Notes under the pieces: generated by a model | The model's input: the letters and a program-made list of their open reading frames with translations, nothing else | What the model was told of the DNA's origin: nothing | Database searches by the model: none | NCBI GenBank assembly: GCA_965218695.1 | Contig: OZ244651.1 | Span: 1,536,001 to 1,600,000 of the forward strand | Direction of reading: 5' to 3' | DNA: 64,000 nucleotides | DNA from: Nitrosopumilus sp. | GTDB taxonomy: Archaea > Thermoproteota > Nitrososphaeria > Nitrososphaerales > Nitrosopumilaceae | Shown here: in pieces, positions 30,987-50,149 of the stretch | Position numbering within the stretch: position 1 is the first letter of the stretch | How the letters are laid out: each line of letters begins with the position of its first letter | Position numbers and translations under genes: made by a program

Positions 30987-31257
30987 CACTCTGTTAATTC
31001 TTCGGGTGTTTTCCCCAGACCGGATCGGTTGTTAACTTAGGGCGGTACGTCTCACAATTTTAGGGTGACATTACCAGATTGAGCCGAGTGTTAACTTAGG
31101 GTGGTGGAATGTTAACTTAGGGTGGCAACGTACTGGGAAGGCACATGGTGTCTTCCCAACACCTAATGGCAAACTGATGCATGTCCTCATGTCCCAGTAT
31201 GTCCACGACCTCAAACGCCGCTTTGATGCACTGAGACGTGCCCAACAGGGTACGCGT

Positions 31258-32922
31258 CTATTCCATATCGGACTCTTCAGAGGTATCGTTGACCAGATCC
31301 GGCTGAGGCCGCTGGTCTTCTTCTCGTTTGATTATCCTCTTCTCGATCTCCTTGCTCAGTAGTTTGGAACGCTTCGTTAGGAAAGTGTCATATTTGTCGG
31401 ACTCGACGCCAAACTTGTCAAGATCCCCTATCAGATGTGTTTTCATGGTGCTGGCAATATGGGGGTTTTTTTCCTTGAATTCGGCCATGTAGTCGGAGGG
31501 CGCACGGTCCCGTATACTTCTCTTGTTTAGGAAGTCATCCACGATGGTGATGTTAAGAACGTGATTGATTTTTTCGTCTTCCATATCCATCTTCTTCAGG
31601 TACGCCTTGGGGAAGAAGTGGTGGTAGTTCTTGCTGTTTGCCTGTTTGAGCCATGTGTTGTCGATGTTGACTAGGCTGTTGTTATCGAAGGATTTTGGTT
31701 GGTTGTACGCGTATATGCAGAGAATTGCTTTGATGTAGCTCCTTCCGACACTGAAGCGTCCATTTCGGTGGATAAAGTCTACCGAGGTATCTATTGGCCA
31801 GTCGTACGTTGGAAGCTCGCCGTCCAGTATCCTATCTACGTGTTTCACGTCCTGCGCAAGCTTGGTTTCAACGCCAGAGGAGTACCTTGCGGACAGCGAG
31901 ACCCTCCAGAAAAAATCGTCCAAATATCTTTGCTTGTCCCCATATGGCCTGCCTTCGTGTTTGAAAAAGAAATACGCGAGCGGTACAATCAGAGTCTTGT
32001 ATGGTAACATGTTTGATACGGGTATTCTGTAGTAGTCCTTGAGATAGTCTACGGCTTCCTTGATTGCCTCCATTATTCTGTCCCAAATGTCGATGATTCT
32101 CTCTTTCGCCAGTGACAGAATGATTTTTTTCTTGCATTCGCCTTCAAGCGCGAGTGAAATGGTCTGCAGGATTGACATATCATATAGCGTCTCATATCCC
32201 ACGTTGTCAAGCTCTTCGATCAACGCCCTGAATTTTTCAGACAAGTCAAAGTCGCTCTTAAGATCGTATGTCTTAGCCACCATTATCTCGAAGGTGGAAA
32301 GACGCGTCCCACCCTCGTTCATGCGGGTAAAGATTTCAGTTGCGATGTGTATCGGCGCATCGTTTACCTCTATTACAGAGAAGTTGTAGGCCTTCAACGT
32401 GTTCGAGTATTCCTTCAGTTTCCCATGGTATTTGGGGTCATATTTCATGAGATCGGCAAAGTTACCGTCGTACAGTGTTTTCAGGTCAATAACGGAATGT
32501 TGCCCGGCCTTGTCGTTTTTTACCATTATGATCGGCCCACCATCCTCCGCCTCAAGGTCCACCACGATGCGGCCAAAATCTTCCTTCTTGCCGTCACCGC
32601 GCGGGATCGTTTCACCCATTAGAGCCGCAATCAGACTCGTTATTCTCTGTTGTCCGTCAAGCACGAAATGTACGTAGTCGCCCTCCGGCGGGTCTGGAAG
32701 ATTCATGCTGCCGACATTCCTGACGGAACGCAGTCTTTCCTTTGTCTTCCAAATGATGAATGTGCCTACTGGGTATCCCTTAATTATGCTGTCAAGGAGG
32801 CTTGCGGACTTGTTGAGATTCCAAACGAAATCGCGTTGAAACTGGGGTATCTTGATTTTTCCGCTGGTAACTTTGTACATTAAATCTGACAGAGATTCGG
32901 TCGTCGGTTTGGGTAGTTCCAT
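31258..32922 (-). CDS. DUF262 (GmrSD-like) protein with C-terminal HNH/DUF1524-like domain; putative modification-dependent restriction nuclease
   Basis: IPQFQRDFVW, LDSIIKGYPVG, LDGQQRITS, IFTRMNEGGTRL, HHFFPK...N...N; start placed at MELPKP. Confidence 0.85.
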   Translation of the reverse strand: MELPKPTTESLSDLMYKVTSGKIKIPQFQRDFVWNLNKSASLLDSIIKGYPVGTFIIWKTKERLRSVRNVGSMNLPDPPEGDYVHFVLDGQQRITSLIAALMGETIPRGDGKKEDFGRIVVDLEAEDGGPIIMVKNDKAGQHSVIDLKTLYDGNFADLMKYDPKYHGKLKEYSNTLKAYNFSVIEVNDAPIHIATEIFTRMNEGGTRLSTFEIMVAKTYDLKSDFDLSEKFRALIEELDNVGYETLYDMSILQTISLALEGECKKKIILSLAKERIIDIWDRIMEAIKEAVDYLKDYYRIPVSNMLPYKTLIVPLAYFFFKHEGRPYGDKQRYLDDFFWRVSLSARYSSGVETKLAQDVKHVDRILDGELPTYDWPIDTSVDFIHRNGRFSVGRSYIKAILCIYAYNQPKSFDNNSLVNIDNTWLKQANSKNYHHFFPKAYLKKMDMEDEKINHVLNITIVDDFLNKRSIRDRAPSDYMAEFKEKNPHIASTMKTHLIGDLDKFGVESDKYDTFLTKRSKLLSKEIEKRIIKREEDQRPQPDLVNDTSEESDME

Positions 32923-33091
32923 TACCGAGGTCGATCCAGTACTCTGATAAACGTTTCCGCCAGGAGGGAATCTGAATTGACCGATTCCGATGATACATCT
33001 GCCTTGCGCAACCGGCAGGCTCAAACACCGCCCCCGGATACAGGCACGTAGCATTAGACATACTTTTAACCACATCCGACACCACCCAATC

Positions 33092-36000
33092 ATGACACTC
33101 ACAACATCCAGTTTTGGTGATGTTGTGAAACATTTGGAACGCGTTGCCAAGGGGGACGGCAAAACCGAGGGTGATCTCTTTGAAGCATTGATGAGATCCT
33201 TCCTCAAGACAGACGAACTCTACCGCGACCGGTTCCGCAACGTGTGGCTGTGGATGGAATATCCTGAAAGGAACGGAAGGGGTGATTTTGGCGTCGATAT
33301 TGTGGCAGAGGAGCAGGACGGGGGATTGTGCGCCATACAGTGCAAATTTTACCCCCACACGAAGCTGACCAAGTCGCACATAGACAGTTTCCTTGAGGCA
33401 GGCAGCAGGGACGAGTTCGATTCCATGCTGCTCATATATTCCGGCGACGGGTACGGGGCCAAGGTCGAAGACGCGCTGAAGGGGCACGGCTGCCGGATTC
33501 TTGACTTCATGGCGCTTGCAGGAAGCAACATGGACTGGCCGAACTTGGCCAAGGGGCTTACGGAAGTCAGGCAGAAGCCCAAATACGGCCTGCGGGACGA
33601 TCAAAAAGACGCGGTAAGGGACGTGAAACGCGGACTTGAAAGTACTGACAGGGGACGAATGATAATGGCATGCGGCACGGGCAAGACGCTGGTTTCGTTA
33701 AGGCTCGCAGAGGACATGATCGGCAAGGGCGGACTGGTACTGTATGCCGTCCCGTCCATATCATTGATGCACCAGGCGATACGGTACTGGTCAGAACAGA
33801 AGAGAATCCCGCACAGCTACGTGGGCGTGTGTTCTGACCCAAAAGTTAGCCACAGAACCGGGCGCGAAGATACCCCCGACATTTCGATCTCCGAGATGGA
33901 AATCAGGGTCACGACGGATCCGGACAAGATTGCCAAAAGCCTGAAGAAGACGGCTGGAAAACTGACCGTGGTTTTTTCGACATACCAGAGCATGAAGGCA
34001 ATCGTCAAGGCGCAGGAAAAGGCAGGCACGGCATTTGACCTGATACTGTGTGATGAGGCGCACCGCACGGCGGGCATAGAGCAGGGAAGCATGGAAGACA
34101 TGTCGCCATTCATGCTGGTGCACGACGAGGTGGATACCAAAAAGCGACTCTACATGACTGCGACGCCGAAAATATACGGGAGCGCGGTAAGGACGAAGGT
34201 TGCAAGGAACGATGCAAGGCCGTACTCCATGGACGACGAATCCAAGTTCGGTCCCTTGCTTTACGAAATGGGGTTCGCCGCCGCCATAGACCGAGGACTG
34301 CTCTCGGACTACAAGGTGGTGGTCTTGGGCGTGGACGAGCGGTACGGCGGACGCGCGTTGCAAAACATGATAAACACCACCACCGAGTCAGGCGACATCA
34401 ACCTGACAGACGCAGCGCGGATGCTCGGGCTGTACCGCATCCTGAACGAGCCCGACCAAGACATCGACATGCCCCCACTCCAAACGGCCATCGTATACAC
34501 CAACCGGGTACGGGATTCCAAATCGTTTGCCAACACGTTTGACAAACTGGCAATGCAGGTAAGCGACGAAGGCGGGTTGCGCTGTAGCGCGACGCACGTG
34601 GATGGCACGCAGAACGCGTCTGTCCGCGCGTCCGCACTGCAGCATCTGCGCGACAGCGCAAGCGACCCCGGAGAATGCAGGATACTCTCAAACGCCAAAT
34701 GCCTGTCAGAAGGCGTCGACGTTCCGACGCTTGACGCAGTCTGTTTCATGAACCCGAAATCGTCAAAGGTCGGGATAGTCCAGGCAGTCGGCCGGGTCAT
34801 GAGGAAAGTAGATGGCAAGGATTACGGCTACGTCATACTGCCCATCGGAATTCCCCCCAACGAGAAAGCGGAGACCATCTTGGACAACCACAACGTCTTT
34901 GACATGGTGTGGAACGTGCTGAATGCCATGAGGTCGCATGACGCCAACATGGACGTCGAGGTAAACACGGCAGATCTCAGGAAAAAGATGATAGACAAGG
35001 TAAAGGTGTTCGGCGTTGACCGCGAAGGTAAAATTCGAAAGGCGGGGGATGATCCAAAAACGTACCCACTAGGTGAACTTGACGTTGATGCGGATGCCCT
35101 GTATGCCAAGATAGTCGAAGAAGTCGGCGACCGGCGCTACCTGGAATACTGGGCAAAGGATGTGGCAACAGTGGTGGCGCGACTACAGGAGCGCATAGGC
35201 CTTGCAATAACCAACAATACGGCCAGGAAGAAATTCGACCTGTTCATGAAGGGCTTGCGCGACATCATAAACGACAGCATCACGGAATCCGACGGTATCG
35301 ACATGCTTGCGCAGCACATGGTAACGCGCCGCATATTCGACGCACTATTTGGCTCGGACGACTTTACCAAGCAGAACCCGATGTCCGCCGTGCTTGATGA
35401 CACCGTGGGAGAACTGCAAAGGCATGGCCTGGAATCCGAGATGAAGGACATTGAGGGGTTTTATGCCAGCATCGAGAACCGTGTCGCAGGACTGGACACC
35501 CATGACGCTAGGCAGCCGGTAATCGCGGAATTGTATGGAAAGTTCTTCAAGAAGGCATTCCCAAAGATGGCCGACAGGTTGGGTATCGTCTACACGCCCC
35601 CGGAGATAGTGGACTTTATCCTGCGCTCAGTCGATCATGTGTTACGGGAGAACTTCGGGCGCGGCCTGACAGACAAGAATATCAACATCATAGATCCATT
35701 TACTGGTGCCGGAACGTTTCTGGCACGGCTGATGTCGCCTGAACTTGGTCTCATACAGGATCGGGACATCAAGCGGAAATACAAGAGCGAGATGTATGCA
35801 AATGAAATTGTACTGCTGGCATATTATATCGCAGCAGTCAACTGTGAATCCGCATATGGATACAAGACAGGTTCTTTCAAGCCTTTTTCTGGCGTTTCCC
35901 TCACAGACACATTCAATCCGGGAAACATGGACGAGTATGCCGGGGATGTCATGACAGGCCCAAAGGAAAGAATCAGGAGACAGCGCGAATCCCCCATAAC

Positions 36001-38122
36001 GGTAATCATGGCGAATCCCCCATACTCTGTAGGTCAGGGAAACGCCAACAAAGACAACAGGAATACGTCACACCCAATGTTGGAAGGAAGATTAAGAGAG
36101 ACGTATGTCAAACGAGCCCCCAAGGGCAACAAGGTATCTTTGTATAATTCCTACATCAAGGCATTCAGATGGGCATCTGACAGGATTGGAGAATCCGGTG
36201 TGATAGGGTTTGTAACACCGGCTTCATTTATCACCGGAAACGCGGAAGCCGGTGTCCGTGCTTGTTTGTATGGAGAGTTCACAGACATATGGTGCTTCAA
36301 TCTGCGGGGAGATGTAAAGAACAAAGATACATGGAAGAAGGAGGGCGGCAAGATATTTGGGAGTGGTTCCAAAGAACCCATCGGCATTACCATTTTGGTT
36401 AAGAATCCCACCAAGCGCGGTTGTACCATACACTACAAACAGGTGGATGATTATCTTACCCAAGGGGAAAAACTGGATGTTGTCCGGAACGTGGGTTCCA
36501 TTATGGGTATTGAAGGCTGGGAGGATGTATTTCCAGACAAGCACCATTATTGGATAAACCAGCCCGGATTGGCAGGCGAAGAGTTTGAAAGACACATGTG
36601 TATGGGTAGTAAGGAAGTGAAACGCGGAAAGAGTGTTGAAGCGATGTTTGGTACATATTCACGAGGAGCTGCGACATCACGTGATGATTGGGTATACAAC
36701 ACATCTGAAAACGAATTAGAAGTAAATATGAGACGACATATTGATTATTGCAATTCTCAGGATCCGGATAATTTTATAATAAACCCAAAACAGGCGAAGA
36801 GTAACACTTCTTTGACAGAACGTATGAAACGACTCAAAAATATTATGTTTGATAAACATCAAATACGCACATCATTATATCGACCGTTTTTCAAACAGTG
36901 GTTGTATTTTGACAATACTTTTGTGGAGTCTAAATATCGAATCCCGTCATTCTTCCCTTCTAACACATCCAAGAATCTGGCCATCATGATTCCTGACAAG
37001 ATCAAGGGCAAATTTTCCACATTCATGACAAACACCACCCCCGATCTACACATCCATGAGGCATCTCAATGCTTTCCCATTAAGGCAAAGAGTGATATTG
37101 GCAAAAAACTAACGCCTTTTGTCACCACCCGTAACCCACTCAGAACCCACTCAGAACCCACTCAGAACCCACTCAGAACCCACTCAGAACCCACTCAGAA
37201 CCCACTCAGAACCCACTCAGAACCCACTCAGAACCCACTCAGAACCCACTCAGAACCCACTCAGAACCCACTCAGAACCCACTCAGAACCCACTCAGAAC
37301 CCACTCAGAACCCACTCAGAACCCACTCAGAACCCACTCAGAACCCACTCAGAACCCACTCAGAACCCACTCAGAACCCACTCAGAACCCACTCAGAACC
37401 CACTCAGAACCCACTCAGAACCCACTCAGAACCCACTCAGAACCCACTCAGAACCCACTCAGAACCCACTCAGAACCCACTCAGAACCCACTCAGAACCC
37501 ACTCAGAACCCACTCAGAACCCACTCAGAACCCACTCAGAACCCACTCAGAACCCACTCAGAACCCACTCAGAACCCACTCAGAACCCACTCAGAACCCA
37601 CTCAGAACCCACTCAGAACCCACTCAGAACCCACTCAGAACCCACTCAGAACCCACTCAGAACCCACTCAGAACCCACTCAGAACCCACTCAGAACCCAC
37701 TCAGAACCCACTCAGAACCCACTCAGAACCCACTCAGAACCCACTCAGAACCCACTCAGAACCCACTCAGAACCCACTCAGAACCCACTCAGAACCCACT
37801 CAGAACCCACTCAGAACCCACTCAGAACCCACTCAGAACCCACTCAGAACCCACTCAGAACCCACTCAGAACCCACTCAGAACCCACTCAGAACCCACTC
37901 AGAACCCACTCAGAACCCACTCAGAACCCACTCAGAACCCACTCAGAACCCACTCAGAACCCACTCAGAACCCACTCAGAACCCACTCAGAACCCACTCA
38001 GAACCCACTCAGAACCCACTCAGAACCCACTCAGAACCCACTCAGAACCCACTCAGAACCCACTCAGAACCCACTCAGAACCCACTCAGAACCCACTCAG
38101 AACCCACTCAACCCGACAATAA
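33092..38122 (+). CDS. Type ISP (LlaGI/LlaBIII-like) restriction-modification enzyme, ending out of frame after a tandem repeat
   Basis: Mrr-like D..QCK nuclease, MACGTGKT, DEAH, TATP, QAVGRVMR helicase, DPFTGAG and NPPY N6-adenine MTase, TRD; start placed at MTLTTSSF. Confidence 0.92.
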   Translation: MTLTTSSFGDVVKHLERVAKGDGKTEGDLFEALMRSFLKTDELYRDRFRNVWLWMEYPERNGRGDFGVDIVAEEQDGGLCAIQCKFYPHTKLTKSHIDSFLEAGSRDEFDSMLLIYSGDGYGAKVEDALKGHGCRILDFMALAGSNMDWPNLAKGLTEVRQKPKYGLRDDQKDAVRDVKRGLESTDRGRMIMACGTGKTLVSLRLAEDMIGKGGLVLYAVPSISLMHQAIRYWSEQKRIPHSYVGVCSDPKVSHRTGREDTPDISISEMEIRVTTDPDKIAKSLKKTAGKLTVVFSTYQSMKAIVKAQEKAGTAFDLILCDEAHRTAGIEQGSMEDMSPFMLVHDEVDTKKRLYMTATPKIYGSAVRTKVARNDARPYSMDDESKFGPLLYEMGFAAAIDRGLLSDYKVVVLGVDERYGGRALQNMINTTTESGDINLTDAARMLGLYRILNEPDQDIDMPPLQTAIVYTNRVRDSKSFANTFDKLAMQVSDEGGLRCSATHVDGTQNASVRASALQHLRDSASDPGECRILSNAKCLSEGVDVPTLDAVCFMNPKSSKVGIVQAVGRVMRKVDGKDYGYVILPIGIPPNEKAETILDNHNVFDMVWNVLNAMRSHDANMDVEVNTADLRKKMIDKVKVFGVDREGKIRKAGDDPKTYPLGELDVDADALYAKIVEEVGDRRYLEYWAKDVATVVARLQERIGLAITNNTARKKFDLFMKGLRDIINDSITESDGIDMLAQHMVTRRIFDALFGSDDFTKQNPMSAVLDDTVGELQRHGLESEMKDIEGFYASIENRVAGLDTHDARQPVIAELYGKFFKKAFPKMADRLGIVYTPPEIVDFILRSVDHVLRENFGRGLTDKNINIIDPFTGAGTFLARLMSPELGLIQDRDIKRKYKSEMYANEIVLLAYYIAAVNCESAYGYKTGSFKPFSGVSLTDTFNPGNMDEYAGDVMTGPKERIRRQRESPITVIMANPPYSVGQGNANKDNRNTSHPMLEGRLRETYVKRAPKGNKVSLYNSYIKAFRWASDRIGESGVIGFVTPASFITGNAEAGVRACLYGEFTDIWCFNLRGDVKNKDTWKKEGGKIFGSGSKEPIGITILVKNPTKRGCTIHYKQVDDYLTQGEKLDVVRNVGSIMGIEGWEDVFPDKHHYWINQPGLAGEEFERHMCMGSKEVKRGKSVEAMFGTYSRGAATSRDDWVYNTSENELEVNMRRHIDYCNSQDPDNFIINPKQAKSNTSLTERMKRLKNIMFDKHQIRTSLYRPFFKQWLYFDNTFVESKYRIPSFFPSNTSKNLAIMIPDKIKGKFSTFMTNTTPDLHIHEASQCFPIKAKSDIGKKLTPFVTTRNPLRTHSEPTQNPLRTHSEPTQNPLRTHSEPTQNPLRTHSEPTQNPLRTHSEPTQNPLRTHSEPTQNPLRTHSEPTQNPLRTHSEPTQNPLRTHSEPTQNPLRTHSEPTQNPLRTHSEPTQNPLRTHSEPTQNPLRTHSEPTQNPLRTHSEPTQNPLRTHSEPTQNPLRTHSEPTQNPLRTHSEPTQNPLRTHSEPTQNPLRTHSEPTQNPLRTHSEPTQNPLRTHSEPTQNPLRTHSEPTQNPLRTHSEPTQNPLRTHSEPTQNPLRTHSEPTQNPLRTHSEPTQNPLRTHSEPTQNPLRTHSEPTQNPLRTHSEPTQNPLRTHSTRQ
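37133..38110 (+). repeat. Perfect 11-bp tandem repeat (AACCCACTCAG) x88 plus a 10-bp partial unit
   Basis: 978 bp, no deviations seen; stop-free on + strand, encodes (NPLRTHSEPTQ)n in all three frames. Confidence 0.97.
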
Positions 38123-38232
38123 TAGTACCCGACAAGATCAAGGGCGAGTTTTCGGTATTCATAACGAACGTGACGCCGGATTTGGAAGCGGTGCATCACG
38201 GCCAATGCTTTCCGATGAGGGTGATGGAATGA
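38110..38232 (+). other. Second, diverged copy of a Type ISP target-recognition segment, currently out of frame
   Basis: NPTIIVPDKIKGEFSVFITNVTPDLEAVHHGQCFPMRVME* versus NLAIMIPDKIKGKFSTFMTNTTPDLHIHEASQCFPIK at 36974-37084. Confidence 0.9.
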
Positions 38233-38912
38233 AGGATAACATCACGGATTGGGCATTGCAACAGTATCAGACGGCGTACAAGGACAACACCATCACGAAG
38301 GAAGACATATTCTACTACACGTATGGCATTTTGCACCACACCGGATATCGTGGCAAGTACCAAATTGTCTTGGTGCGCGGCCTTCCGCGCATCCCGATGG
38401 CTCCTGATTTTTGGGCATTCAGTGATGCCGGAAAGAGGCTTGCAGATCTGCACTTGGGGTATGAGACGTGTCCAAGGTATGATTTGGGCCAGCCGCTCAA
38501 CAAAATACCGGACGGTCCACGTGCCATAAAATTTGGAAGAAAGCCGGATCCTGATAATGTCGCCAAGACCATTGACGACGAATCCGTGCTTTTCATAAAC
38601 GGTATCAAGGTGTATGACAACATTCCGGCGATATCATACAAGGTAAACGGACGCACGCCGATAGGGTGGTTTGAAGACAGGTACAAGTTTTCCACGCACA
38701 AAGAGAGCGGCATCACGAATTATCCTCTGGAAGACGTAAGTGGTGATGATATACGCGGGATAATAGAACGCCTTGTCCATGTTGGTGTGGAGTCAGACAA
38801 AATTATGGTCGGACTGGCAAAAAAAGAGTTTGAGTCCGGCAAGGATTGGCAGCCTGCAAAGACCGGGATGGACGCGCATATGCAGTCTGGGGCGTTTCAG
38901 AGCACGTTGTAA
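38229..38912 (+). CDS. Type ISP C-terminal domain as a separate ORF
   Basis: MKDNITDWAL..ITKEDIFYYTYGILH..YR..Y...LPRIP..G..LADLHL.YE; GAGGGTGA Shine-Dalgarno-like motif at 38217-38224 and ATGA overlap. Confidence 0.8.
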   Translation: MKDNITDWALQQYQTAYKDNTITKEDIFYYTYGILHHTGYRGKYQIVLVRGLPRIPMAPDFWAFSDAGKRLADLHLGYETCPRYDLGQPLNKIPDGPRAIKFGRKPDPDNVAKTIDDESVLFINGIKVYDNIPAISYKVNGRTPIGWFEDRYKFSTHKESGITNYPLEDVSGDDIRGIIERLVHVGVESDKIMVGLAKKEFESGKDWQPAKTGMDAHMQSGAFQSTL

Positions 38913-39019: not shown

Positions 39020-39697
39020 TTGGCTCAACAAAAATGGACAATTCCAACAGACATGTTAATAGATGGCTCTCTACATTGTGTAAAAAATGCAAAACGGTTG
39101 TCGGAAGACGCGAAATCACTGTTTGAATCTAAGCGCTATTCGTCGTGTCTATCGTTAGCAGTATTGGCATTAGAAGAATTAGGAAAATCGTTCATGCTGC
39201 TAGATGCATACGTGAAAAAACAGGAAGTAGAATCGAGGGATTGGTTTAAAAAATTTAGTTCACATCGAGAAAAATTAGAATTTTTAAGCGATTATCTCAG
39301 AACAAACTCTAATGACGAATCTCATAAAAACTCACTCGATAAAATGACCAATCTTATGAGAGCATTGTTAGAGAAAAAAATGGATTCGTTGTATGTCGAC
39401 TGGAACGGCACCCGAGGGGGATGGCGTTACTTTGATGAGCATGAAGGCGATAAGCAAAGAATTGCAAAAGAGGCTTTAACAGCATGCAAAGTGCTTATAG
39501 ACACCGTGTCCAAAAGCCTTGGTGACAGCGGTTTAAAGCTTCCTAACGAAATTGCAGAATCATTACGAAATGGTAAGGCCTATGGTTTTTGCGAAGAATG
39601 TGGCTTGTGTATGCTAACAGCGACAGATGTTAGAATCCACAGCATACAAACTGCCCACTACAGAATGTCATGGTATTCTGTGCCAGAAAAATCATAA
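39020..39697 (+). CDS. AbiV-family (HEPN) abortive-infection protein
   Basis: NAKRLSEDAKSL...SLAVLALEELGK, FSSHREKL, SLYVDW; AT-rich. Confidence 0.8.
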   Translation: MAQQKWTIPTDMLIDGSLHCVKNAKRLSEDAKSLFESKRYSSCLSLAVLALEELGKSFMLLDAYVKKQEVESRDWFKKFSSHREKLEFLSDYLRTNSNDESHKNSLDKMTNLMRALLEKKMDSLYVDWNGTRGGWRYFDEHEGDKQRIAKEALTACKVLIDTVSKSLGDSGLKLPNEIAESLRNGKAYGFCEECGLCMLTATDVRIHSIQTAHYRMSWYSVPEKS

Positions 39698-39871
39698 ACT
39701 GTTTGAGTTCATGGATTTATTCTTACGGGGCTTGTTCCAGTACGGACTCTTACATTTGGGACAGATGGTCGGAAGCAAAACCGAGTCCGGATCCGACTGG
39801 TTTATCGACTTCGGGCACCACTTGTGGCCACACCTTTCACATTCGAAGCCGGTTATTTTTATTATCGCCAT
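39692..39871 (-). CDS. Small zinc-ribbon protein divergent from the transposase
   Basis: MAIIKITGFECERCGHKW...PTICPKCKSPYWNKPRK. Confidence 0.75.
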   Translation of the reverse strand: MAIIKITGFECERCGHKWCPKSINQSDPDSVLLPTICPKCKSPYWNKPRKNKSMNSNSL

Positions 39872-40324: not shown

Positions 40325-42583
40325 GTAAGAGGTCGCCTTTGCGAAGCGATTTCGTGCCTGATCTGCCCCGATTAATTACCAACTGAGCTACGTTTTCGGC
40401 CGTAAATGCCCATTTAATTGGCATTATTCTGAGTTTTTCCGGGGGAGTCCGACTGAGCTACGTTTTGGCAGATCCGGTGATCGGGCTTGCGAAGTGGCCT
40501 TTTTTGGCGCTGTCCGGGGCGGTGCGTTGTGCCCGAATCGGGTGGCGGGCCGGCACGGCGGCCTGACATGTCAGGCAACCGGTGCGACGGGAGTCGCGCA
40601 GGACATGCAGGGCAGCCATGGATGGATTTTGCAGGATTTATGCAGCTGTTGCTGCTACTGCCGGTATTTTTTCGACCATGCCTCGCATGTAGTCGACCAA
40701 AAAGTCGTGCGGGTTGACGCCGCGCATCCTGCACGTCTCGCGGATGGTGGCCAGGACGGCGTGGTTGTATGCGCCGGCAAGGCTCTTGCTGCCGCCTGAG
40801 ACCTTCCGGGATGCGACGCTGGGCCGCAGGGGACGCTCGGCATCGTTGTTATGGCACTTTGTGTTGAGGCGGATGAATGGGAACAGATGGGTGATCTCGC
40901 GCCGCAGCCGCTTGACAAACCGCTTGCAGTGGGGTTCGGTGTAGCTGCCAGACATCAGGCGCCTCACCCGGGCCAGGAGGTTGCGCACCTTGAGGTTTCG
41001 CGCGGCCTTGTCGTCATGCGGGTTGAGTCCCTTCTCTGCGTGCCAGGAATCGATGATTATCCCCTTTAGGGCCTTGGCAAACTTTTTGAATTCTGGCCCC
41101 GGGTTTTTCATGGCCAGGGTGCGGATGATCTCGCGGAGATAGTGGTAGTGGCACTTTTGGTGGGTTCTGCCGATGCGGTTCCACGCGGAGTGTGAATCAG
41201 AGGTGACGTGGCCTGCGTACCCTCCAAGCAGGGTCTCCAGCACGTCTCCTCCCCGGCGCTTGTCCACGTAAAAGACAGTCGAGTTGTCACCGACTAGTAT
41301 CCACAGCCAGTACAGCACACCGGCTACCCTCCAGCTGGTCTCGTCCCCGAAGACATGCTCTGAGAAGAATATCTCCTCGAGCATCTCCTCGTAGAGCGGG
41401 TGGAGGGATCCTGTCACGGCATCCACGTGGCCGATGACAGTCGACTTTGCAAGGCCCGTGTGGTAGATTATGTTGATCAGCTTGCGGATGGGTTCGTATG
41501 GAATGTTGTACATCCTCATCGTCGTCTCAAGGCACGTCAGGCTGGCGCCGAACCGTCCACCGGGGACGACCCCTGGGATCTCGGGGGCAAACTGCCTGCC
41601 GCATTCCCTGCAGTACCTGCGGACGACGGTATACTGGATGCCGGTCAGCTTCCCGTCGATAATCTCCTCGACTACCCGGATGGTCACCTCGGTGGGCTCC
41701 TTCGAGAGGGCATGGCCGTGCGGGCAGGCGGGCATGTCGACTAGCTTTTTTTCGGATATCGGGGGAGGATCACGGCCGGTGCGCAGGCAGACGACCTTCC
41801 TGAACGGATTCGGCGCAGGCCCGGGCGATTCCCGGAGCCGCTTCTGGGAGCGGCGGCTTTTGATGCCCAGATTCTCGGCTGCCAGCGCCGAGTTGGCCGC
41901 GCGCGCCTCCCTCAACTGAGAGGCATGCTCTGATGCCTGCTGCTCCAGGCGGGCTATCCTGTCCATGACTGCCTGCGAGACGTCGCATCCCTGCAGGAGG
42001 GCGGCATTCTCTGCCCGCAGCTTCTCTACCTCTACCTTCAAATTCTCCATATCTCCTCCCAGATTCTCTATCTCTGCATCTTTCAGCTCTATCTCGGAGT
42101 CCTTTTGTTCTATCTCGGAGTCCTTTTGCACATTCTCTTCTTCCAGCAGTTTGATCCTGGCATCCATCTCCGTCAGCATCGCGTGTTCCCCTGAGAAGGC
42201 CTCTGCCTCCTCCTTCAGCTGCTCGATGTCTTTTCTCAGCGCCATGCTCTCCTCGTCCTTGGATTTGAGCATGTCAAGGACGGATTCGAAGAGGGACCTG
42301 GTGTCTGTTACGGAGTTCCAGTCAATCTTTTCCAAGTCGATTACAGGCACCACGCCATAACACGGGAAGGCATGATCCATAAAGCTTTTGGGCACGCAGC
42401 GCCTGCCGGAAAATGCGGCGCAAAAGATCCAACCGGAAGAGCCTTGATCCGAAAACCGCCCTGTCTGAGGACCGTGTTGATAACGTGCAATTAATCGGGT
42501 ATTTATGGTCAAAAACGTAGCTCAGTTGGTAATTAATCGGGACAGATCAGGCACGGAATCGCTTCGCAAAGGCGACCTCTTAC
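40325..42583 (-). mobile_element. IS66-family element with ~70-bp TIRs
   Basis: GTAAGAGGTCGCCTTTGCGAAGCGATT...CAACTGAGCTACGTTTT at both ends; 8-bp TSD TCAAAAAG. Confidence 0.93.
40638..42512 (-). CDS. IS66-family transposase with long coiled coil (true start probably downstream of 42512)
   Basis: GDETSW, SDSHSAW, QKCHYH, HNNDAERPLR. Confidence 0.88.
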   Translation of the reverse strand: MTINTRLIARYQHGPQTGRFSDQGSSGWIFCAAFSGRRCVPKSFMDHAFPCYGVVPVIDLEKIDWNSVTDTRSLFESVLDMLKSKDEESMALRKDIEQLKEEAEAFSGEHAMLTEMDARIKLLEEENVQKDSEIEQKDSEIELKDAEIENLGGDMENLKVEVEKLRAENAALLQGCDVSQAVMDRIARLEQQASEHASQLREARAANSALAAENLGIKSRRSQKRLRESPGPAPNPFRKVVCLRTGRDPPPISEKKLVDMPACPHGHALSKEPTEVTIRVVEEIIDGKLTGIQYTVVRRYCRECGRQFAPEIPGVVPGGRFGASLTCLETTMRMYNIPYEPIRKLINIIYHTGLAKSTVIGHVDAVTGSLHPLYEEMLEEIFFSEHVFGDETSWRVAGVLYWLWILVGDNSTVFYVDKRRGGDVLETLLGGYAGHVTSDSHSAWNRIGRTHQKCHYHYLREIIRTLAMKNPGPEFKKFAKALKGIIIDSWHAEKGLNPHDDKAARNLKVRNLLARVRRLMSGSYTEPHCKRFVKRLRREITHLFPFIRLNTKCHNNDAERPLRPSVASRKVSGGSKSLAGAYNHAVLATIRETCRMRGVNPHDFLVDYMRGMVEKIPAVAATAA

Positions 42584-43620
42584 TCAAAAAGGCAGAAATA
42601 TTCCTGCAAGCAGTGCAGGTACCGGTTCGTCCTGTCCGAGAGCGGGTTCTCAAAAGTCAGCTCGGAACCCAAAATCATCACCGAATCCATTAACCTGCAC
42701 TTTTCGGGAATGTCACTGCGTAAAATATCACGGCACGTCAAGATCGCACACGGTCGGGAGATCAGCCACGTCGCAGTGTACAAGTGGATCGAGAAATACA
42801 TGGGGATCATAGGGGCGTACGTGGATTCCATCGTGCCGAACACGGGCGACGTGTGGAGCCTTGACGAGATGATGTTAAACGTCAAGGGCACGAAAAAGCT
42901 CAACTGCAAGGGATTCCACGTCTGGCTCTGGTCCATAATCGACCCCCAGACCAGGTTCGTGATCGCCACAGAGGTGTCAAAGAGACGGGAAATGCCCGAC
43001 GCCAGACGCATAATCCGGAAGGGCAAGAATGCGGTCTTGAAGAATCCGAGTTACGTGATTACCGATTCCCTGAAAAGCTACGAGGGCGCGATAAGGAAGG
43101 AACTGGATGCGAGGAAGACGGCACACGTCAAGACCCGCTCGCTCAAGGACGGGTTCCAGAACAGGCCGATAGAAAGGTACCACAACGAACTGAGGGAGAA
43201 TACCAAGACCCGGCGCGGCCTGGGCAACGACGAATCCGCCCAAAAATTCGCAGACGCGCAAAGAATCAAACACGACTTCTTAAATCCGCACTCCGGACTC
43301 CCGGGCAACATTACCCCGGCGGAAGCCGCCGGTATAGACCTGAACTTGGGAGACGACAAGATCAGGGACCTCATATCCCTAGGTTCGCAAAAGAAGAACT
43401 TCGTGACCCACCTAGGGAAGCGGGTGGACAAGGTGACAATCGTAAACGAGACGGATTCAATCAAGGTTACCCCCAAGACATGGATTGACAAGAGAGTCTG
43501 GCGGGAGATCAACGACATCCTCAGACTGAGCAGTTTTAGTTGGCTGTCAAACGGCAGACACAGTTGCTGGATCAAGCCGACTGGAGAGTAAAATACATCA
43601 TCTCACAAAACTTGACCGCT

Positions 43621-43792: not shown

Positions 43793-45536
43793 GTAAGTGA
43801 TTCGCTTTTTGAAGTTCCGCTGGCTTTGCGCGCCTATACTCGCGCAGCCTCCCCATCCGAGAGCGCGGATCGTGCCGAATAAATGGTGACGCAGGCTCCG
43901 TTGTCAGCCGTCGCCGGACGCAGAACGCACCAAGTGGTCGAAGAAGCTTTCTCTACGGACGCGGTCAGTGGCCAGCATGGTAAACAGCACGGAATTTGCG
44001 TCCATGCCCTTCCGGGACCGGTTGCCCCCGCCGTCGTTCCTCACTGAGACGAACCTTCGGTTGGCTCTCTCCACCGCGTTGTTGTCCGGACTGATGCCCG
44101 GGGTCCGCAGGCATGTTGTCATGTAGTACCCCTCGCGGTAGCGCCGCTTGCGGTATTTGGCGATGGTGCCGTGCCTGTCGTCTTGGTACGGGGCGGCAAA
44201 CAGCCCCGCCGGTTCCGAGTCTATGCAGTCAGCCGCCACGGCCCTGGAATACGGGTCCTTGACGCGCCAGGCGCGGTAGATCTTTTTGTGCACGGCAGAC
44301 AGCCCGGCCAGGAATTCGGTCACGTCCCCGCCTGGATTCCACTCCAGATCCTTCTGCACCAGGCGCTCCTGGTGGACCACGCACATCTGGCGGGCCGACC
44401 CGACATGGAGCCACGCCGGGTACGAGTCCTGCGTGATGATCCCCTCGTAGCCTGGCAGTACTCCCTTGATGGTCTTTGTCTTGCGGGAGTCTACTATTTC
44501 CACCAGGCACGACTCCTTGCCGAGTGCGACCACGCCGTAGCCGCGCCTGCCCTTGAGTGGCCAGTGGAACTCGTCGGCCCCCAGGTGCGGCTCTTTGAGG
44601 ATCTTTTTCCTCACGGCGTCGCGTTCCGGGGCCATCTGCAGGGCCCTGCTTATCTTGTTCCTGTATGCAGACGAGCAGGACACGGGCGTGCCAAGCGCGT
44701 CGCCTGCGAATTCGGCGGATCTTGCGTGGGACAGACCCGACATATTCAAAAAGTTGAGCACGGCGCCGACGTTGGCCCCGTAGCGCGCGTGCGGCGCGGT
44801 TCCGGGAGGCTTGGCAGAGACCTGTTTCTTGCAGTCCCTGCACCAGCGCCTGACTGTCACGTACTTTATGGTCTTTACAAGCAGGGTCAGCGTCTTGACG
44901 ATCCGGTCGTATTCGCCCGTGGGGTTCTCCGAGACGTTCTTCCCGCCGCACCCGGGGCACCTGTCAAAGTCTACGATCTCCGTGCAGTCTACCTTATCGG
45001 GCCTCTTGTTGATCGTGGCCTTTTGCCCCTTGGGCCTGCCTGCCTTACCGGGATTGGTCTTCTTTTTGGAGGAAGGCATGCTTATCCCGTTTGCCCGGGC
45101 GCTGAGTTTGCGGTTTGCCTCGGCGTGCTTCTTGTTGTCTTCTTTCAGGGACTTTACCTGGGCCTGAAGACTCTCCGCCTCATTGCCGTCTGACGCACCT
45201 GCAACCTCGCGCGCCATTTTCAGGGTCTTGACGGCAGCATCCACGGCATCACGCACCACGCCTGACCAGTACTGGCAGCATCTACATTCGGATTTCATGC
45301 AGGCACCGCAGTCCTGCGCGGAACGTTCAAGGATTGCCTTAAATCCCTCCTCTTCCAAGCATGTTTGGCGTGTCGGTTCCTTCATTTGTGGTTAGCTGAA
45401 GGGACTGGCACCCGCTAGTACTTGGATCTCTACAGACAATTAATTTTGACAAAGCGTGAAAAAATCCTTGGGTTCCGTCCCGGCACGGTGACTACCGGCA
45501 GGGGAATCAGGGCACTTCAAAAAGCGAATCACTTAC
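43793..45536 (-). mobile_element. IS66-family element without matching TSD
   Basis: Perfect 23-bp TIR GTAAGTGATTCGCTTTTTGAAGT. Confidence 0.88.
43904..45385 (-). CDS. IS66-family transposase
   Basis: MPSS, GRPKG, CPGC/CRDC, ADE, QDSY, QMCVVH, PDNNAVERANR. Confidence 0.88.
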   Translation of the reverse strand: MKEPTRQTCLEEEGFKAILERSAQDCGACMKSECRCCQYWSGVVRDAVDAAVKTLKMAREVAGASDGNEAESLQAQVKSLKEDNKKHAEANRKLSARANGISMPSSKKKTNPGKAGRPKGQKATINKRPDKVDCTEIVDFDRCPGCGGKNVSENPTGEYDRIVKTLTLLVKTIKYVTVRRWCRDCKKQVSAKPPGTAPHARYGANVGAVLNFLNMSGLSHARSAEFAGDALGTPVSCSSAYRNKISRALQMAPERDAVRKKILKEPHLGADEFHWPLKGRRGYGVVALGKESCLVEIVDSRKTKTIKGVLPGYEGIITQDSYPAWLHVGSARQMCVVHQERLVQKDLEWNPGGDVTEFLAGLSAVHKKIYRAWRVKDPYSRAVAADCIDSEPAGLFAAPYQDDRHGTIAKYRKRRYREGYYMTTCLRTPGISPDNNAVERANRRFVSVRNDGGGNRSRKGMDANSVLFTMLATDRVRRESFFDHLVRSASGDG

Positions 45537-45574: not shown

Positions 45575-48500
45575 TCAGTCTGACCTAGATTTGTCCAGAA
45601 CCTCAGATGCAACTCCAGATAGCAACGCCCAAATCTGCTTGTATTCTCCCCCTAATAGACTGCTGTCCGTAGGTACAGCCTTACCCCAATCCTCTGGAAC
45701 CAGTTCTTGTAACCAGTGTGCTACATCTCTGGATCCGACATTGTAGAAATCAGGTCTCTCATTTTTGTACATCTCTCCAATCTTCTTAGATATACTCCTT
45801 GGAACGCTGTTGAGTCTCATCAGTATGGCCTCATTAGTATCTACACCGTAGTATACCATAGCAGGAATGTTTGCAAACCTCTGTTTTTCTTCTTCTGACA
45901 TCTCTTCTGTCCTTATGCCTGAAGTAGGCAGCTTTTGGAGAGCAGCCAGTCCCCAAGTAGCAGAGTGTGATATTCGAGCATATATTGCCCTAACACAGGT
46001 GCTCATCTGAGCCGGATCCGTGCCACCAAAATATTTTTGGGCGATTGCGGAAATGGCTTTTCCCGATACCCAGTCCGATATGACCCGGCTGATAAACTCG
46101 TTTTGGTTGCCTGAACCCTTGATTTCTGAGAGGTCGTGGCTCGTTTCTGGGATTTTTTCTAACAGTATGCCAGTCAGTTTTGCAAGCGTGGGCGACTCCC
46201 CAGAAAAGAGATTGCTGCCCCACTCTGACGGCTCTATCTTGAATTCTTGGATGCTGTCAATAGCAGTTTGGAGTGTCTCCATAGTAAAACCGGTTTTGTC
46301 GGACAGAGTTACCAAGTCCTCGTTTTCGCTCAGGTAGTCGGCATATTCTCTCACGGCGACTGCAAGCTTCTTCTTCTTCTTAGGCGAGAGCTGGTTGTAC
46401 CCATATGTTCGGTTCAGGTTGGCACTTATTTCCGCTATGAATTCCTCTATGCTGTCAGACTGGCTGTACATATGTGACAGGTATTGTAGGAATGACGACC
46501 ATTCCGGCTCGTTGGCATGTGATGAGAGGTTAAGGCGTTTGCCTAGCTTGGTGGCATCTTCGATCATGTTCTTTAACACGGATACCAATTCTCCTGTACT
46601 CTTTAGTACGTACTTCTTGGCCTCGATTGCATCATCGGAATTTGCCCCATGCACAGCCACTCCTACCATGCCCAAGGAACGTTGGTCTAATCTGCCTGCT
46701 CGGCCGACAATGTTCCAAAATTCCATTGGTGGTATTGGTCCACTCATGCGCCGTTTGTATGAAGAAATTAGTATGTTATTTATGGGGAAGTTCATTCCCT
46801 GTACAACTGTCGTTGTAGATACTAGCACCTTCAGCGATCCGGATTCCATCAACCACTCCATGAGTTCCCTCACGTCGTCTGGTAATCCGGCATGGTGAAC
46901 ACCTATGCCCTTTCTCACATACTTGGCAAGCGGAAAAGATCTACCCATTTCAGATTCCACATACCTTGCGACAAGATCAAGGTTCTGGTCGACATCACTA
47001 TCACTCACATCTGGTATGATACTATCCAAATGCTTGGCCATAGACCATGTGTTTGGTATAGTGCCACTCAGAATCAGCGTATTCTGATTTTCCATTATAG
47101 ATGCTGTAAGGGCCGTAAGCTTGGAGTTATTGTTACGCAACCTGTTGACACGAAAGTCTCCATGTTTTGAATGGCCAAGCACGATGTTCTGCTTCATAGT
47201 CAATGTGTTGCTGTGAGTCACCACTGGCTGAAAGTATATGTTTGTGCCACCATCACTATCCTCTGCATAGTACAACCCAACCACCTTGTCGTTTGGCTGC
47301 CACCAATCTAGCTCCATATGTATTGACTGAGGATTGAATGGATCAAGCCATTGGGCAACTTCCTTGTGGTTTGGTACAAATGGCGTCATGAGGAGCAAGT
47401 GCGCTCGTTCGCAGTCACGCTGGATGTTGGAGATCAACATTTCCCAATTCAGGCCACGACTTTTGTTTGAAATGTTGTGTGCTTCGTCTATTACCGCCAG
47501 CACTATATCTTTTACAAATTTTTTATTCTCAGGTGCACGCACAAGCAGGTTCATTTTTTCAGGCGTGGTTACCAAGACGTCAAACGAACCCGACTCTAAC
47601 ACGTTTTCCTCAAACGAGTCTATCTCGATCGCACCACTCATTTTTTCAATTCTTACGCCCAGATCAGCTTGTCCCAAATCGCGCCGGAGACGGGTAGTTA
47701 TCTGATTGACCAGGGCTCTTGTAGGTACCACATACACGATCTTCCCTCTAGTCTCGGCAAACTGGTTCAGGGCTTGCAATATTCGGAACTCTGCGATTAT
47801 TGTCTTACCACTAGAGGTGGGCAGATTTACAACGACCGCCTTCAATGCCGGATCTAGAAGCCGTTGTTCCAAGATCGCGCTCCGTTGTGGGTACAATAAT
47901 TCAAATACCGGTTTTTTGTCACGTCGAGTAAGCGACTTGACGAACTTTGTAGCTCGTGAATTAATCTGACTTGCAACGCTCCATATGGAATTTCCAACCA
48001 TCTTCCTAAACGCCGCCTGTAGCAGCATGATGAGGAGTTCCAGTTCCACGATCATAGATCTCTCACAACACCTTGACGCGGTATCCATGTGGTAATCGAT
48101 CCTACTGATCACTTGCCGTGACCCGCCTCCATTTAGCATGTACCTACATAGTATATCCACGGCCAATGCAAGGTGGTAATATGATGCAATCTCAAGTGCT
48201 GCACTACCTTGATGATCTTGATTCATACCTGCAAAAAATCTTTCCTCATATTCCTCTTGTTCCACTTGAAGCTCCTTGACGTACTCTGTTGCTCTTGACA
48301 GATCGTTCCATGTCTCCTTCCTTACTAAGTACAGTACCGCCATGTAGATCTTAGACAACAGACGTACATCCCACTGGTCTGCTTCAGTGTTTATCTTCCA
48401 ATCTGCCTCATTTTCTATCAGAAATCGCCTCATATCTTCCCACTTTTCGCCAAGGTATGCGTATGCAAACATTTTCAAAATGTGCTTGATCTTGTCAGTG

Positions 48501-48781
48501 TGTTTAGATGGAACAGGCATCATTTGTAGCAGGTCAAAGCAGTTTCTACATGATTCGTGGAACAATGCCTTATTCACCTTGTCAGTTGTGTCAAATGCAT
48601 GCCTCCAGAAAATTACTATTGCCACCTCGTAGGCATCTATGATCTTTTGGATCTCATCAAGATTCCGATCCAGTTTAAGCTGCGTTGTGATGTATCTTGA
48701 TATCTTCATTCCGTTTACGGTCTCCATGAATTGTTCTGACCTTTTTTCTTCTATGATCTCGAGTATTCTTTTGCTGGTCAT
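45575..48781 (-). CDS. hamB: Ski2-like DEAD/DEAH helicase, Hachiman HamB-like
   Basis: LPTSSGKT, PTRAL, TTPEK, DEAH, HHAGL, QGMNFP, GRAGR; helical N-terminus; coupled to a HamA-like gene. Confidence 0.75.
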   Translation of the reverse strand: MTSKRILEIIEEKRSEQFMETVNGMKISRYITTQLKLDRNLDEIQKIIDAYEVAIVIFWRHAFDTTDKVNKALFHESCRNCFDLLQMMPVPSKHTDKIKHILKMFAYAYLGEKWEDMRRFLIENEADWKINTEADQWDVRLLSKIYMAVLYLVRKETWNDLSRATEYVKELQVEQEEYEERFFAGMNQDHQGSAALEIASYYHLALAVDILCRYMLNGGGSRQVISRIDYHMDTASRCCERSMIVELELLIMLLQAAFRKMVGNSIWSVASQINSRATKFVKSLTRRDKKPVFELLYPQRSAILEQRLLDPALKAVVVNLPTSSGKTIIAEFRILQALNQFAETRGKIVYVVPTRALVNQITTRLRRDLGQADLGVRIEKMSGAIEIDSFEENVLESGSFDVLVTTPEKMNLLVRAPENKKFVKDIVLAVIDEAHNISNKSRGLNWEMLISNIQRDCERAHLLLMTPFVPNHKEVAQWLDPFNPQSIHMELDWWQPNDKVVGLYYAEDSDGGTNIYFQPVVTHSNTLTMKQNIVLGHSKHGDFRVNRLRNNNSKLTALTASIMENQNTLILSGTIPNTWSMAKHLDSIIPDVSDSDVDQNLDLVARYVESEMGRSFPLAKYVRKGIGVHHAGLPDDVRELMEWLMESGSLKVLVSTTTVVQGMNFPINNILISSYKRRMSGPIPPMEFWNIVGRAGRLDQRSLGMVGVAVHGANSDDAIEAKKYVLKSTGELVSVLKNMIEDATKLGKRLNLSSHANEPEWSSFLQYLSHMYSQSDSIEEFIAEISANLNRTYGYNQLSPKKKKKLAVAVREYADYLSENEDLVTLSDKTGFTMETLQTAIDSIQEFKIEPSEWGSNLFSGESPTLAKLTGILLEKIPETSHDLSEIKGSGNQNEFISRVISDWVSGKAISAIAQKYFGGTDPAQMSTCVRAIYARISHSATWGLAALQKLPTSGIRTEEMSEEEKQRFANIPAMVYYGVDTNEAILMRLNSVPRSISKKIGEMYKNERPDFYNVGSRDVAHWLQELVPEDWGKAVPTDSSLLGGEYKQIWALLSGVASEVLDKSRSD

Positions 48782-49551
48782 GTCTCGATTCTTACATGTT
48801 CTGCTAGCGCGCTTATGCGTTTTGGTATATAAAGTGCTAGGAGCTCAACATATGCGCTATCATCCATCTCAATCCCACGCATAACAGGCATCATGTCCAG
48901 CTCGTCCGGGTCTACGTCTCTTACCATGATCCCGACAACCTTGAATTCAGATCTAGGTTCAGATTCCAAATAGAGCGTAGCGGTCTGACTATAAGCGATT
49001 ACATCTGGATCTTCGATGTTCCGGTCAATGAGTTTTTTCCCAAGCCATTTTATCAGTTCTATCCTAACACCACTGTCAGACATCAGACGGTTCAGCTGGC
49101 ATGTCAAACCATATTTGCCGTAGACTACACTTGGAGTCCCTATCTGCCTAGATGTCTTGACCTCACCAAACAGAAACAGGGTTCGATCTCCCACTGTAGC
49201 CAGTCCCACCAAATCGACTCCCGGCATACTAGCCTTCCGGTTCTTCATGTCTCTTATGTAGTTATAGGGAAAGAGGGCTCCTCTATAGTCTGCAAGGTAG
49301 CATTCGGCAAATTTCTCTCCAATCCTCCATCCAGCTCTTGGTATCTTGACAGAGAGACGATCATGTAGTTTTTTCTTGTTGAATCCTTTGATATTTCCAA
49401 TCATGTCCACAAGTGACTGTGTTCCTTTCGCATCGTCAAGCTCTGCTTTCACTCGCGTGCTCAGGTAGTCTGAGAAGCCGTCGCTTCGTATCCCAATTCC
49501 CTCATATCTTTTCCGTTCATCGCCGTGTTTATATGCCTGCCAAATGCGCAA
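48778..49551 (-). CDS. hamA: Hachiman HamA-like (DUF1837-type) PD-(D/E)xK nuclease; start uncertain
   Basis: IGEKFAECYL, PGVDLVG, LFGEVKTS; ATGA overlap with the helicase start. Confidence 0.7.
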   Translation of the reverse strand: MRIWQAYKHGDERKRYEGIGIRSDGFSDYLSTRVKAELDDAKGTQSLVDMIGNIKGFNKKKLHDRLSVKIPRAGWRIGEKFAECYLADYRGALFPYNYIRDMKNRKASMPGVDLVGLATVGDRTLFLFGEVKTSRQIGTPSVVYGKYGLTCQLNRLMSDSGVRIELIKWLGKKLIDRNIEDPDVIAYSQTATLYLESEPRSEFKVVGIMVRDVDPDELDMMPVMRGIEMDDSAYVELLALYIPKRISALAEHVRIET

Positions 49552-50149
49552 CAATATCAGGCTCTTGAGTCTGATCCTATAAAAATAAAATACAGCAGTT
49601 TTAGATTTCGTATGTACGGCATGGCATACTGACTTGGAAATGACATGCTCCATAGGAACATGTGGCCATATGTATACCATACAATCCATGTCTTTCTGTA
49701 GCATCCAACAATTGCCTAAGAGATCCTCATATGACGGATCTGTATCTTGAATTGAGTTATGGAAACACCATGTTGTCATCAGGATGCCCTCATACCAAAA
49801 AATATCCTAGAATGGTATAAGGCCTAAATGGATGTATTTCAAGCATTTAGGATTACCAGACTCGTATCAAATGGTTGTTTAGCGTGGAAAAATGCGGATC
49901 GCGTGGCTACCTTACAAAGAATCACAATGGACACAAGTGGCATATCGAAAGTCTCACCACCCTAAGTTAACACTCCACCACCCTAAGTTAACAACCGATT
50001 CGATTCGGGGAGACTTCCCCCACGTTGAGGAATTCACCACCCTAAGTTAACAGCAGACTAGATCTGGGGAAAACACCCGAAGAATTAACAGAGTGCATCT
50101 AACTTAACACCACCCATCTAACTTAACACCTAGGACAATCCGGTGAAAC

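Follow-up and report, generated by a model that had tools for sequence, protein, structure and literature searches.

Members of the IS6 family of insertion sequences (IS), as described in the portions of two reviews used here, are 0.7-1.8 kb long with 14-20-bp repeats, GG tips and 8-bp target repeats (PMC7986276, PMC6807381), and have a single open reading frame (ORF), cTGTt and caaa tip motifs, and cointegrate-forming (replicative) transposition (PMC7986276). The long clostridial members carry a zinc finger and those of clade i a further N-terminal domain (PMC7986276, PMC6807381), while a single known member, ISDsp3, carries passenger genes (PMC7986276). Thaumarchaeal IS-like elements hold 1-2 genes, and the same portion of the 2019 survey of thaumarchaeal mobile elements that reports this gives passenger-carrying DNA transposons as undetected in archaea (PMC6563490). 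Here we describe a 19,109-bp element at positions 30987-50095 of a 64,000-nucleotide stretch (the window) of the Nitrosopumilus sp. assembly GCA_965218695.1 (contig OZ244651.1), and propose that it is very probably a unit transposon of a family that is present in the ammonia-oxidising archaea (Nitrososphaeria) and lacks a description in the literature searched. A literature search, together with the portions covered of PMC6563490, PMC7986276, PMC6807381 and PMC13343696, yielded no account of elements of this kind; supplements, ISfinder and TnCentral lay outside its scope. What appears to be new is the presence of an IS6-superfamily enzyme within a cargo-carrying unit transposon with multi-site ends.

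Ends and transposase of the 19-kb element

The element is bounded by perfect 33-bp terminal inverted repeats, CACTCTGTTAATTCTTCGGGTGTTTTCCCCAGA (30987-31019 on the forward strand and 50063-50095 on the reverse strand), each abutted by one copy of an 8-bp target-site duplication, CATCTAAC (30979-30986 and 50096-50103). Allowing up to 3 mismatches, the window has no further match to CACTCTGTTAATTCTTCGGGTGTTTTCCCCAGA, and 100 shuffles yielded none. Inside each repeat are three copies of a subterminal motif, TGTTAACTTAGGG, presumed to be additional transposase-binding sites, which start at 31030, 31089 and 31110 in the left end (31030-31122, forward strand) and at 50040, 49981 and 49960 in the right end (49960-50052, reverse strand). 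With up to one mismatch permitted the window holds six matches to this motif, all of them exact, and the shuffles average 0.01, none of the 100 reaching six. The two ends mirror each other exactly in geometry, with a gap of 10 bp and then steps of 59 and 21 bp; the two arms are only 78.7% alike across 141 bp, so the spacers have diverged. The core of the left repeat, CTGTTAATTCTTCGGG, is itself a variant of the subterminal motif with 2 additional bases, and the pair of tips is unique in the whole 2.63-Mb genome (9 contigs, 52.8% G+C). The perfect repeats with their directly flanking 8-bp repeat, and the three mirrored motifs per end with diverged spacers, had been noted in an earlier examination of the DNA without database searches (hereafter the sequence-only reading), and all were recovered at the same positions.

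Near the centre of the element is a putative transposase gene in two pieces, both on the forward strand. The N-terminal part (39969-40324) encodes a SWIM-like CxCx14CxH finger and the start of a zinc ribbon, and the C-terminal part (42584-43591) encodes the remainder of the ribbon, a helix-turn-helix (HTH), a DDE domain of the IS240/IS6 type and a conserved C-terminal domain; in alignment the latter piece retains the D, D, E and R columns. The gene is split by IS66-A (40325-42583, reverse strand), a multi-copy insertion sequence of the IS66 family with an 8-bp duplication, TCAAAAAG (40317-40324 and 42584-42591), and by arithmetic its removal together with one copy of the duplication would restore an open frame of 451 codons. 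No tip-like sequence lies beside the gene, and it has no short repeats of its own, in agreement with the sequence-only reading of a central SWIM-zinc-HTH-DDE gene that lacks terminal repeats and is broken by an IS66 insertion. The SWIM signature (CECx14CKH in the window N-terminal piece) is also present in homologues; the Pfam SWIM model (PF04434) scores 19.4 bits against a cut-off of 19.6 in one of these (L039) and gives no match to the window piece.

In the catalytic domain, the Pfam DDE_Tnp_IS240 model of the IS6 type gives 58-62 bits (58 for the window copy) against a cut-off of 27. The closest annotated relatives are clostridial IS6/ISCpe7 transposases, with 28-29% identity across residues 98-365, and the nearest branch of the family is the long clostridial, ISCpe7-like one, which corresponds to clades h/i of Varani et al. 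(2021) and VII/VIII of Harmer and Hall (2019) in the parts of those classifications covered here. A search of PDB sequences with a transposase profile gave no matches at E-values up to 1.

Related elements in Nitrososphaeria and alternative explanations

Homologues of the transposase with 46-66% amino acid (aa) identity are encoded in metagenome-assembled genomes (MAGs) labelled Nitrosotalea, Nitrosopumilaceae, Nitrosopumilus and Nitrososphaera. The comparison set consists of 14 genome loci and 79 metagenome loci kept from 162 confirmed stretches, all of them found through transposase homology. Pairs of like tips surround the homologue at 5 of the 14 genome loci and 18 of the 79 metagenome loci; the L122 pair was dropped as a contig-end artefact and L078 and L079 are one element, which leaves 17 distinct metagenome elements. 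There are thus 22 elements besides that in the window (2.8-13.4 kb), or 23 with it (2.8-19.1 kb), and 15 of the 23, the window element included, have a perfect 8-bp duplication. Eight more loci that are cut by contig ends show a single end in the correct orientation, and most of the loci lacking a pair are truncated near the gene. End pairs with 8-bp duplications that bracket transposase homologues with other cargo, which the sequence-only reading had named as the test of its proposal, are therefore seen in other Nitrososphaeria elements, and the suggestion of an undescribed class of large, cargo-carrying, IS6-like archaeal transposon is supported by 22 further elements of the same end design.

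In an all-against-all comparison of ORFs of at least 60 aa, the transposase is the sole protein cluster present in all 23 elements. The next real clusters are a methyltransferase (five elements) and a ~380-aa ORF that adjoins the transposase gene (four elements), two more clusters being antisense frames of the transposase. Tip type follows transposase clade in a maximum-likelihood tree, as seen for the GGTAAATTAA-type tips (6/6, support 97/97), GGTAA(T/C)TCTT tips (4/4, 100/100), GTTCAATCTT (4/4, 80/83) and GGCTCTGGTAATT (2/2, 100/100). A single shared cluster and tips that track its clades are what would be expected if this were the element's own enzyme. Four relatives (G014, G017, G036 and G039) contain 70-100-aa frames that match only the last 60-85 residues of the transposase, within the C-terminal domain, and these may be remnants or free-standing small genes.

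All 46 ends begin NNC(A/T)CTG(G/T)T, with a CTG(T/G)T core at bases 5-9, and the tip holds a motif-like site at base 7. At least one subterminal copy is found in 41 of the 46; the first starts most commonly at base 45 (26 ends), otherwise at 36-37 (8 ends) or 32 (4 ends) among the positions recorded, and the second lies 14-21 or 39 bp further in. The window ends have their three subterminal motifs at bases 45, 104 and 125, and genome G002 holds an end with the same geometry. The tip resembles the subterminal motif, with 1-2 additional bases inserted between TGTTAA and CTTAGG. Similarity between the two arms of an element spans 70-140 bp, subterminal repeats included. In two Nitrososphaera-type elements (L038 at ~7720-7790 and L072 at ~5610) a tRNA-like sequence (GGGCCGTTAGCTCAGCTTGG...) lies immediately within the left end.

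We propose that each member encodes one ~450-codon transposase combining a SWIM-like finger, zinc ribbon, HTH, IS6-type DDE core and C-terminal domain, and that each end presents, besides a tip site, a related motif of 13-19 bp repeated two or three times at fixed subterminal positions. Several transposase molecules would bind these sites and pair the two ends, and the DDE core would then join them to target DNA cleaved at staggered positions 8 bp apart; transfer could be replicative, as in IS6, or cut-and-paste.

Evidence of movement comes from one empty site, of the kind that the sequence-only reading had suggested looking for. In reverse complement, metagenome contig L044 opens with the same 55 bp that flank the 13.4-kb L033 element on its left, after which comes one copy of CGATTTAT without any element; the right flank of L033 in turn resembles the L044 site without its 4.6-kb element. 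The two contigs belong to the same co-assembled MAG. Positions 30990-37100 are covered, with 5 differences, by contigs from a run of another study, and a run from a third study has a contig with an identical 29-bp tip, another flank and another interior.

The cargo of the related elements consists mostly of restriction-modification and other defence genes, with 1 to ~8 cargo ORFs per element on one or both sides of the transposase gene. Examples include a methylase and specificity subunit (L031), a deaminase and type I system (L033), an N4/N6 methylase (L038), a phosphoribosyltransferase (PRTase) with a DprA/SLOG protein (L039) and a TIR-domain protein (L044). Among the 71 ORFs of at least 110 aa in the 17 metagenome elements there are matches to N6_Mtase (5), Eco57I (5), N6_N4_Mtase (3), PAPS_reduct (3, SspD-like), D12 methylase, ResIII and Methylase_S (2 each), and HaeIII, BsaWI, Vsr and C5-methylase (1 each). 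Parts of restriction-modification systems of types I, II and III are all represented in the cargo.

Comparison with IS6/IS26 in the portions of the reviews covered shows both kinship and distance. Shared features are an IS240/IS6-type DDE domain and HTH, a zinc-binding N-terminal extension and a length of ~450 aa as in clade i, the 8-bp duplication and the CTG(T/G)T core. However, beyond the low identity noted above, these transposases additionally contain a SWIM-like finger and a conserved domain at the C terminus, the tips mostly lack GG and lack caaa, the ends have 2-3 further subterminal sites, and the elements are 2.8-19 kb with cargo rather than 0.7-1.8 kb (PMC7986276). Nitrososphaeria are mentioned as hosts in the covered portions of neither IS6 review (PMC7986276, PMC6807381). 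Membership of the transposase in IS6 is probably best regarded as loose and distant.

Several alternatives were considered. It is unlikely that the 19-kb unit is non-autonomous, with its ends served in trans by IS66 or a distant IS6-like paralogue and the SWIM-DDE gene carried as cargo: in its favour are the disrupted window gene, the three IS66 transposases in or next to the element, and the existence of ends without partners (solo ends) and of transposase-less pairs of the same tip type. Against it, the IS66 copies are equipped with GTAAG... ends and duplications of their own and are numerous elsewhere, and tblastn of both transposase pieces finds only distant paralogues in the same genome, at most 31% identical and with other tips. 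Nor does such an arrangement fit with a SWIM-DDE gene that is the only protein cluster common to all elements and whose clades the tip types follow. As to the possibility, raised by the sequence-only reading, that such ends are miniature inverted-repeat transposable elements (MITEs) unlinked to the transposase, solo ends and transposase-less pairs are present, and 23 pairs enclose a transposase. A related explanation, which we regard as very unlikely, is that a defence island grew in place between independent solo ends or MITEs, the 8-bp flanks simply reflecting a repetitive target, a tandem 19-bp array. When the flanks are joined across the element they give exactly three in-register copies of the 19-bp unit (GTGTTAAGTTAGATGGGTG, reverse strand) plus one extra CATCTAAC, the 33-bp tips are identical with their three-motif geometry mirrored to the base, and 14 other elements of the family have perfect 8-bp duplications in non-repetitive targets; these points argue against growth in place even though CATCTAAC recurs every 19 bp in the tandem-repeat target and the region is dense in IS elements.

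An origin from another known mobile class, whether Tn7/Mu-like, Tn3-like, casposon, pseudo-compound IS6 transposon or integrase-borne island, is extremely improbable. The resemblance to Tn7 and Mu lies in the ends, each combining a terminal site with copies of a related motif at set distances further in (where binding is presumed), and defence-gene cargo is also a feature of Tn7-like elements in the portion of PMC8649781 covered. In profile searches of the element ORFs there is no TnsA/B/C, in keeping with the sequence-only reading, and likewise no MuB, Tn3-type TnpA, resolvase, Cas1, or tyrosine or serine recombinase. Target-selector genes are also lacking, the transposase is by sequence not of the TnsB/MuA (rve) type, and the module has a single protein, with no second cluster common to the elements. 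Tn7, Mu and Tn3 generate 5-bp duplications, in contrast to the 8 bp seen here. Elements of the Tn3 family are likewise unit transposons with inverted ends, passenger genes and replicative transfer (the last of which may apply here), but their 1000-aa TnpA and their resolvase or res site are absent, as are the 38-bp repeat and 5-bp duplication typical of Tn3-type elements. Finally, the ends are 140-bp non-coding arms and not flanking IS copies.

A number of observations weigh against our preferred interpretation of a unit transposon mobilised by its own IS6-related enzyme. Activity, binding and transposition are predictions from sequence, and no intact transposase cognate to the window copy is encoded in its genome, where the next best is 31% identical. 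Presence of the transposase in all 23 elements is partly by construction, as the loci were found through it. Perfect duplications are missing from 8 of the 23 pairs, which might be expected after intramolecular replicative events or recombination. Six loci with ~9-10 kb on both sides (L040, which is G017, L042, L050 with 8.7 and 10 kb, L054, L112 and L116) have no pair, and neither does the G036 homologue; scans for inverted repeats and paired k-mer arrays in 40 kb around the G036, G017, G009 and G007 homologues, several of which are gene fragments, found nothing, and the tip pattern gave one weak match, equal to the control, in the five closest-homologue genomes (G007, G009, G017, G029 and G036), whose tips differ from those in the window. 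A reverse search by the window tip type identified 16 tips in 4 of 401 genomes (the window genome G000, G002, G018 and G066); these are mostly solo ends, and only the window pair encloses a transposase. G018 has a like-tip pair 15.3 kb apart with no duplication and no transposase homologue, and the window genome has a 2-kb element (C2:14785-16816) with tips TACTCTGTTCAATCTTCGGGG and neither transposase nor duplication; the latter contains the same kind of motifs, a duplicated left end and small ORFs, and is probably a non-autonomous relative. As to affinity with IS6, which the sequence-only reading had proposed, the Pfam domain passes, but the best NCBIfam match, transpos_IS6, reaches 84-110 bits and is below its cut-off of 125, the IS1 model is close behind for one member (82 bits), and identity to the long clostridial transposases is low. 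Tips mostly start (G/T/C)AC instead of GG, which is found in 2 of the 23 elements (L044 and L092), and caaa is absent. The structure model is weak (mean predicted local distance difference test, pLDDT, 63; predicted template-modelling score, pTM, 0.35), with Foldseek matches to ISCth4 (IS256 family), retroviral integrases and TnsB at template-modelling (TM) scores of 0.19-0.26; it suggests a DDE/RNase-H fold only and was not used for family assignment.

Nesting and the site of insertion

In six independent cases the tip of a related element lies within another end, starting 37-38 bp from the outer tip (L044 9834-9870; L039 9184-9221; L038 7567-7604; window genome C1:40581-40618; G002 L142; and G002 L143), and in contig C9 of the window genome the distance is 47 bp. 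The 8-bp duplication lies at bases 29-36 of the outer end in L044 and at bases 30-37 in L039. Other close associations are seen in L033, which abuts a tip, in L048, L053 and L061, which have a foreign tip 8-9 bp outside, and in L090 and L091, where a tip is inside the transposase gene; by a crude regular-expression count there are 5 tip matches in 4518 bp of flanks versus 1.2 expected. From these few cases it is likely that the elements home into their relatives' ends, at the spacer that separates the tip site from the first subterminal site. IS4321 and IS5075 home into the terminal repeats of Tn21-type transposons and similarly have a fixed insertion position within the terminal repeat of another transposon. 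Their enzyme is different (IS110/IS1111-type), and in the elements described here the invader and invaded end are of the same superfamily and an 8-bp duplication is made (L039 and L044).

The 19-kb element itself, to judge from its flanks, inserted whole into the motif array of a related element's solo right end, a point that the sequence-only reading had not made, and was evidently disabled later, when IS66 landed in its transposase gene. All pieces of this outer end are on the reverse strand. Its inner piece (30944-30986), with the third GTGTTAAGTTAGATGGG motif, is the target of the insertion, and the middle piece (50096-50149) contains two motifs and the spacer. This is followed by IS66-C (50150-51694, forward strand), an IS66-family element with duplication GGTGAAAC and 17 other copies at 99% identity or more, which separates the 19-bp array from the tip of the solo end, CACTCTGTTAACTCTTCGAGTGGTTTCACC (51695-51724). 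No forward-strand copy of its motif or tip was found anywhere in the genome, and its inner side adjoins a fragment of another transposase gene, itself interrupted by an IS5-like element; for both of these reasons the outer end is read as solo. Housekeeping genes are located at 27705-28832 and from 51754 onward.

The surrounding segments (window 19000-31000 and 50150-51694) are rich in IS66-type, IS5-like and IS6-like elements and MITEs, and the genome carries dozens of near-identical IS copies. There are many MITEs of ~200 bp in this genome (for example window 26826-27027 and 29077-29123, C1:34502-34699, and others in C3 and C9), which have GGCTCTGGTAAATTCTAGTGATCTC tips and three TGTTCAAAAGTG motifs at spacings of 59 and 30 bp, and the ends of the 19-kb element show the same 59-bp step; at window 29077-29123 there is a 47-bp back-to-back pair of tips. 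Also present is a 1696-bp IS6-like insertion sequence (C1:1285790-1287485, with five further copies, one at window 20698-22394), which has long GGTTCTCCTGCATCATCGG... inverted ends, 8-bp duplications and a transposase 27% identical to that of the window.

Gene content and biological significance

Without its two internal IS66 copies the window element would be ~15.1 kb long, and all of its recognisable non-IS cargo, which makes up four systems, is of defence type, as the sequence-only reading had stated and profile searches bear out. At the left is a leftwards-transcribed gene for a GmrSD-type (type IV) restriction enzyme (31258-33207, reverse strand; GmrSD_N 102.7 bits; PDC-M55C, HEC-05), followed on the forward strand by a Type ISP/IIG restriction-modification gene (32990-38912) and an AbiV-type HEPN abortive-infection gene (39020-39697; HEPN_AbiV 84.4 bits). 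Small ORFs at 39627-39960 have no family match in the profile searches, NCBIfam included. To the right of the transposase gene are IS66-B (43793-45536, reverse strand), a second IS66-family insertion sequence with no duplication seen, and two leftwards-transcribed genes encoding a Hachiman-like helicase (45575-48781, reverse strand; PDC-M23B/HamB, 1187 bits) and its partner (48778-49779, reverse strand; PDC-M23A, 187 bits).

The Type ISP gene is in two overlapping frames (32990-38122 and 37119-38912) because of a perfect tandem repeat within its specificity domain (37133-38110, forward strand), in which an 11-bp unit, AACCCACTCAG, is present 88.9 times. This array has 100% matches, is unique in the genome and is open in all three frames (NPLRTHSEPTQ repeats), and the parts of the gene before and after it stand in different frames. 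Since 11 mod 3 = 2, gain or loss of one unit would shift the frame, and the array could be a contingency switch, or it could have expanded recently and broken the gene.

Taken together, these observations lead us to a broader and still tentative proposal: that these are widespread single-transposase unit transposons of Nitrososphaeria, which have multi-site ends like those of Mu and Tn7, may be an archaeal branch of the IS6 superfamily, may serve as a main vehicle of restriction-modification and defence systems between ammonia oxidisers, may build defence islands by nesting through homing at bases 29-37 of their relatives' ends, and could represent the first passenger-carrying class of DDE transposon in archaea. 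Such a family would fill the archaeal gap in passenger-carrying DNA transposons and provide a concrete route for exchange of defence genes among globally important nitrifiers, using a single-protein transposition module with a capacity of 15 kb or more. It would also show a possible path from a simple IS6-type end to a multi-site one, and the apparent homing into relatives' ends would offer a testable rule for the growth of mobile-element graveyards and defence islands.

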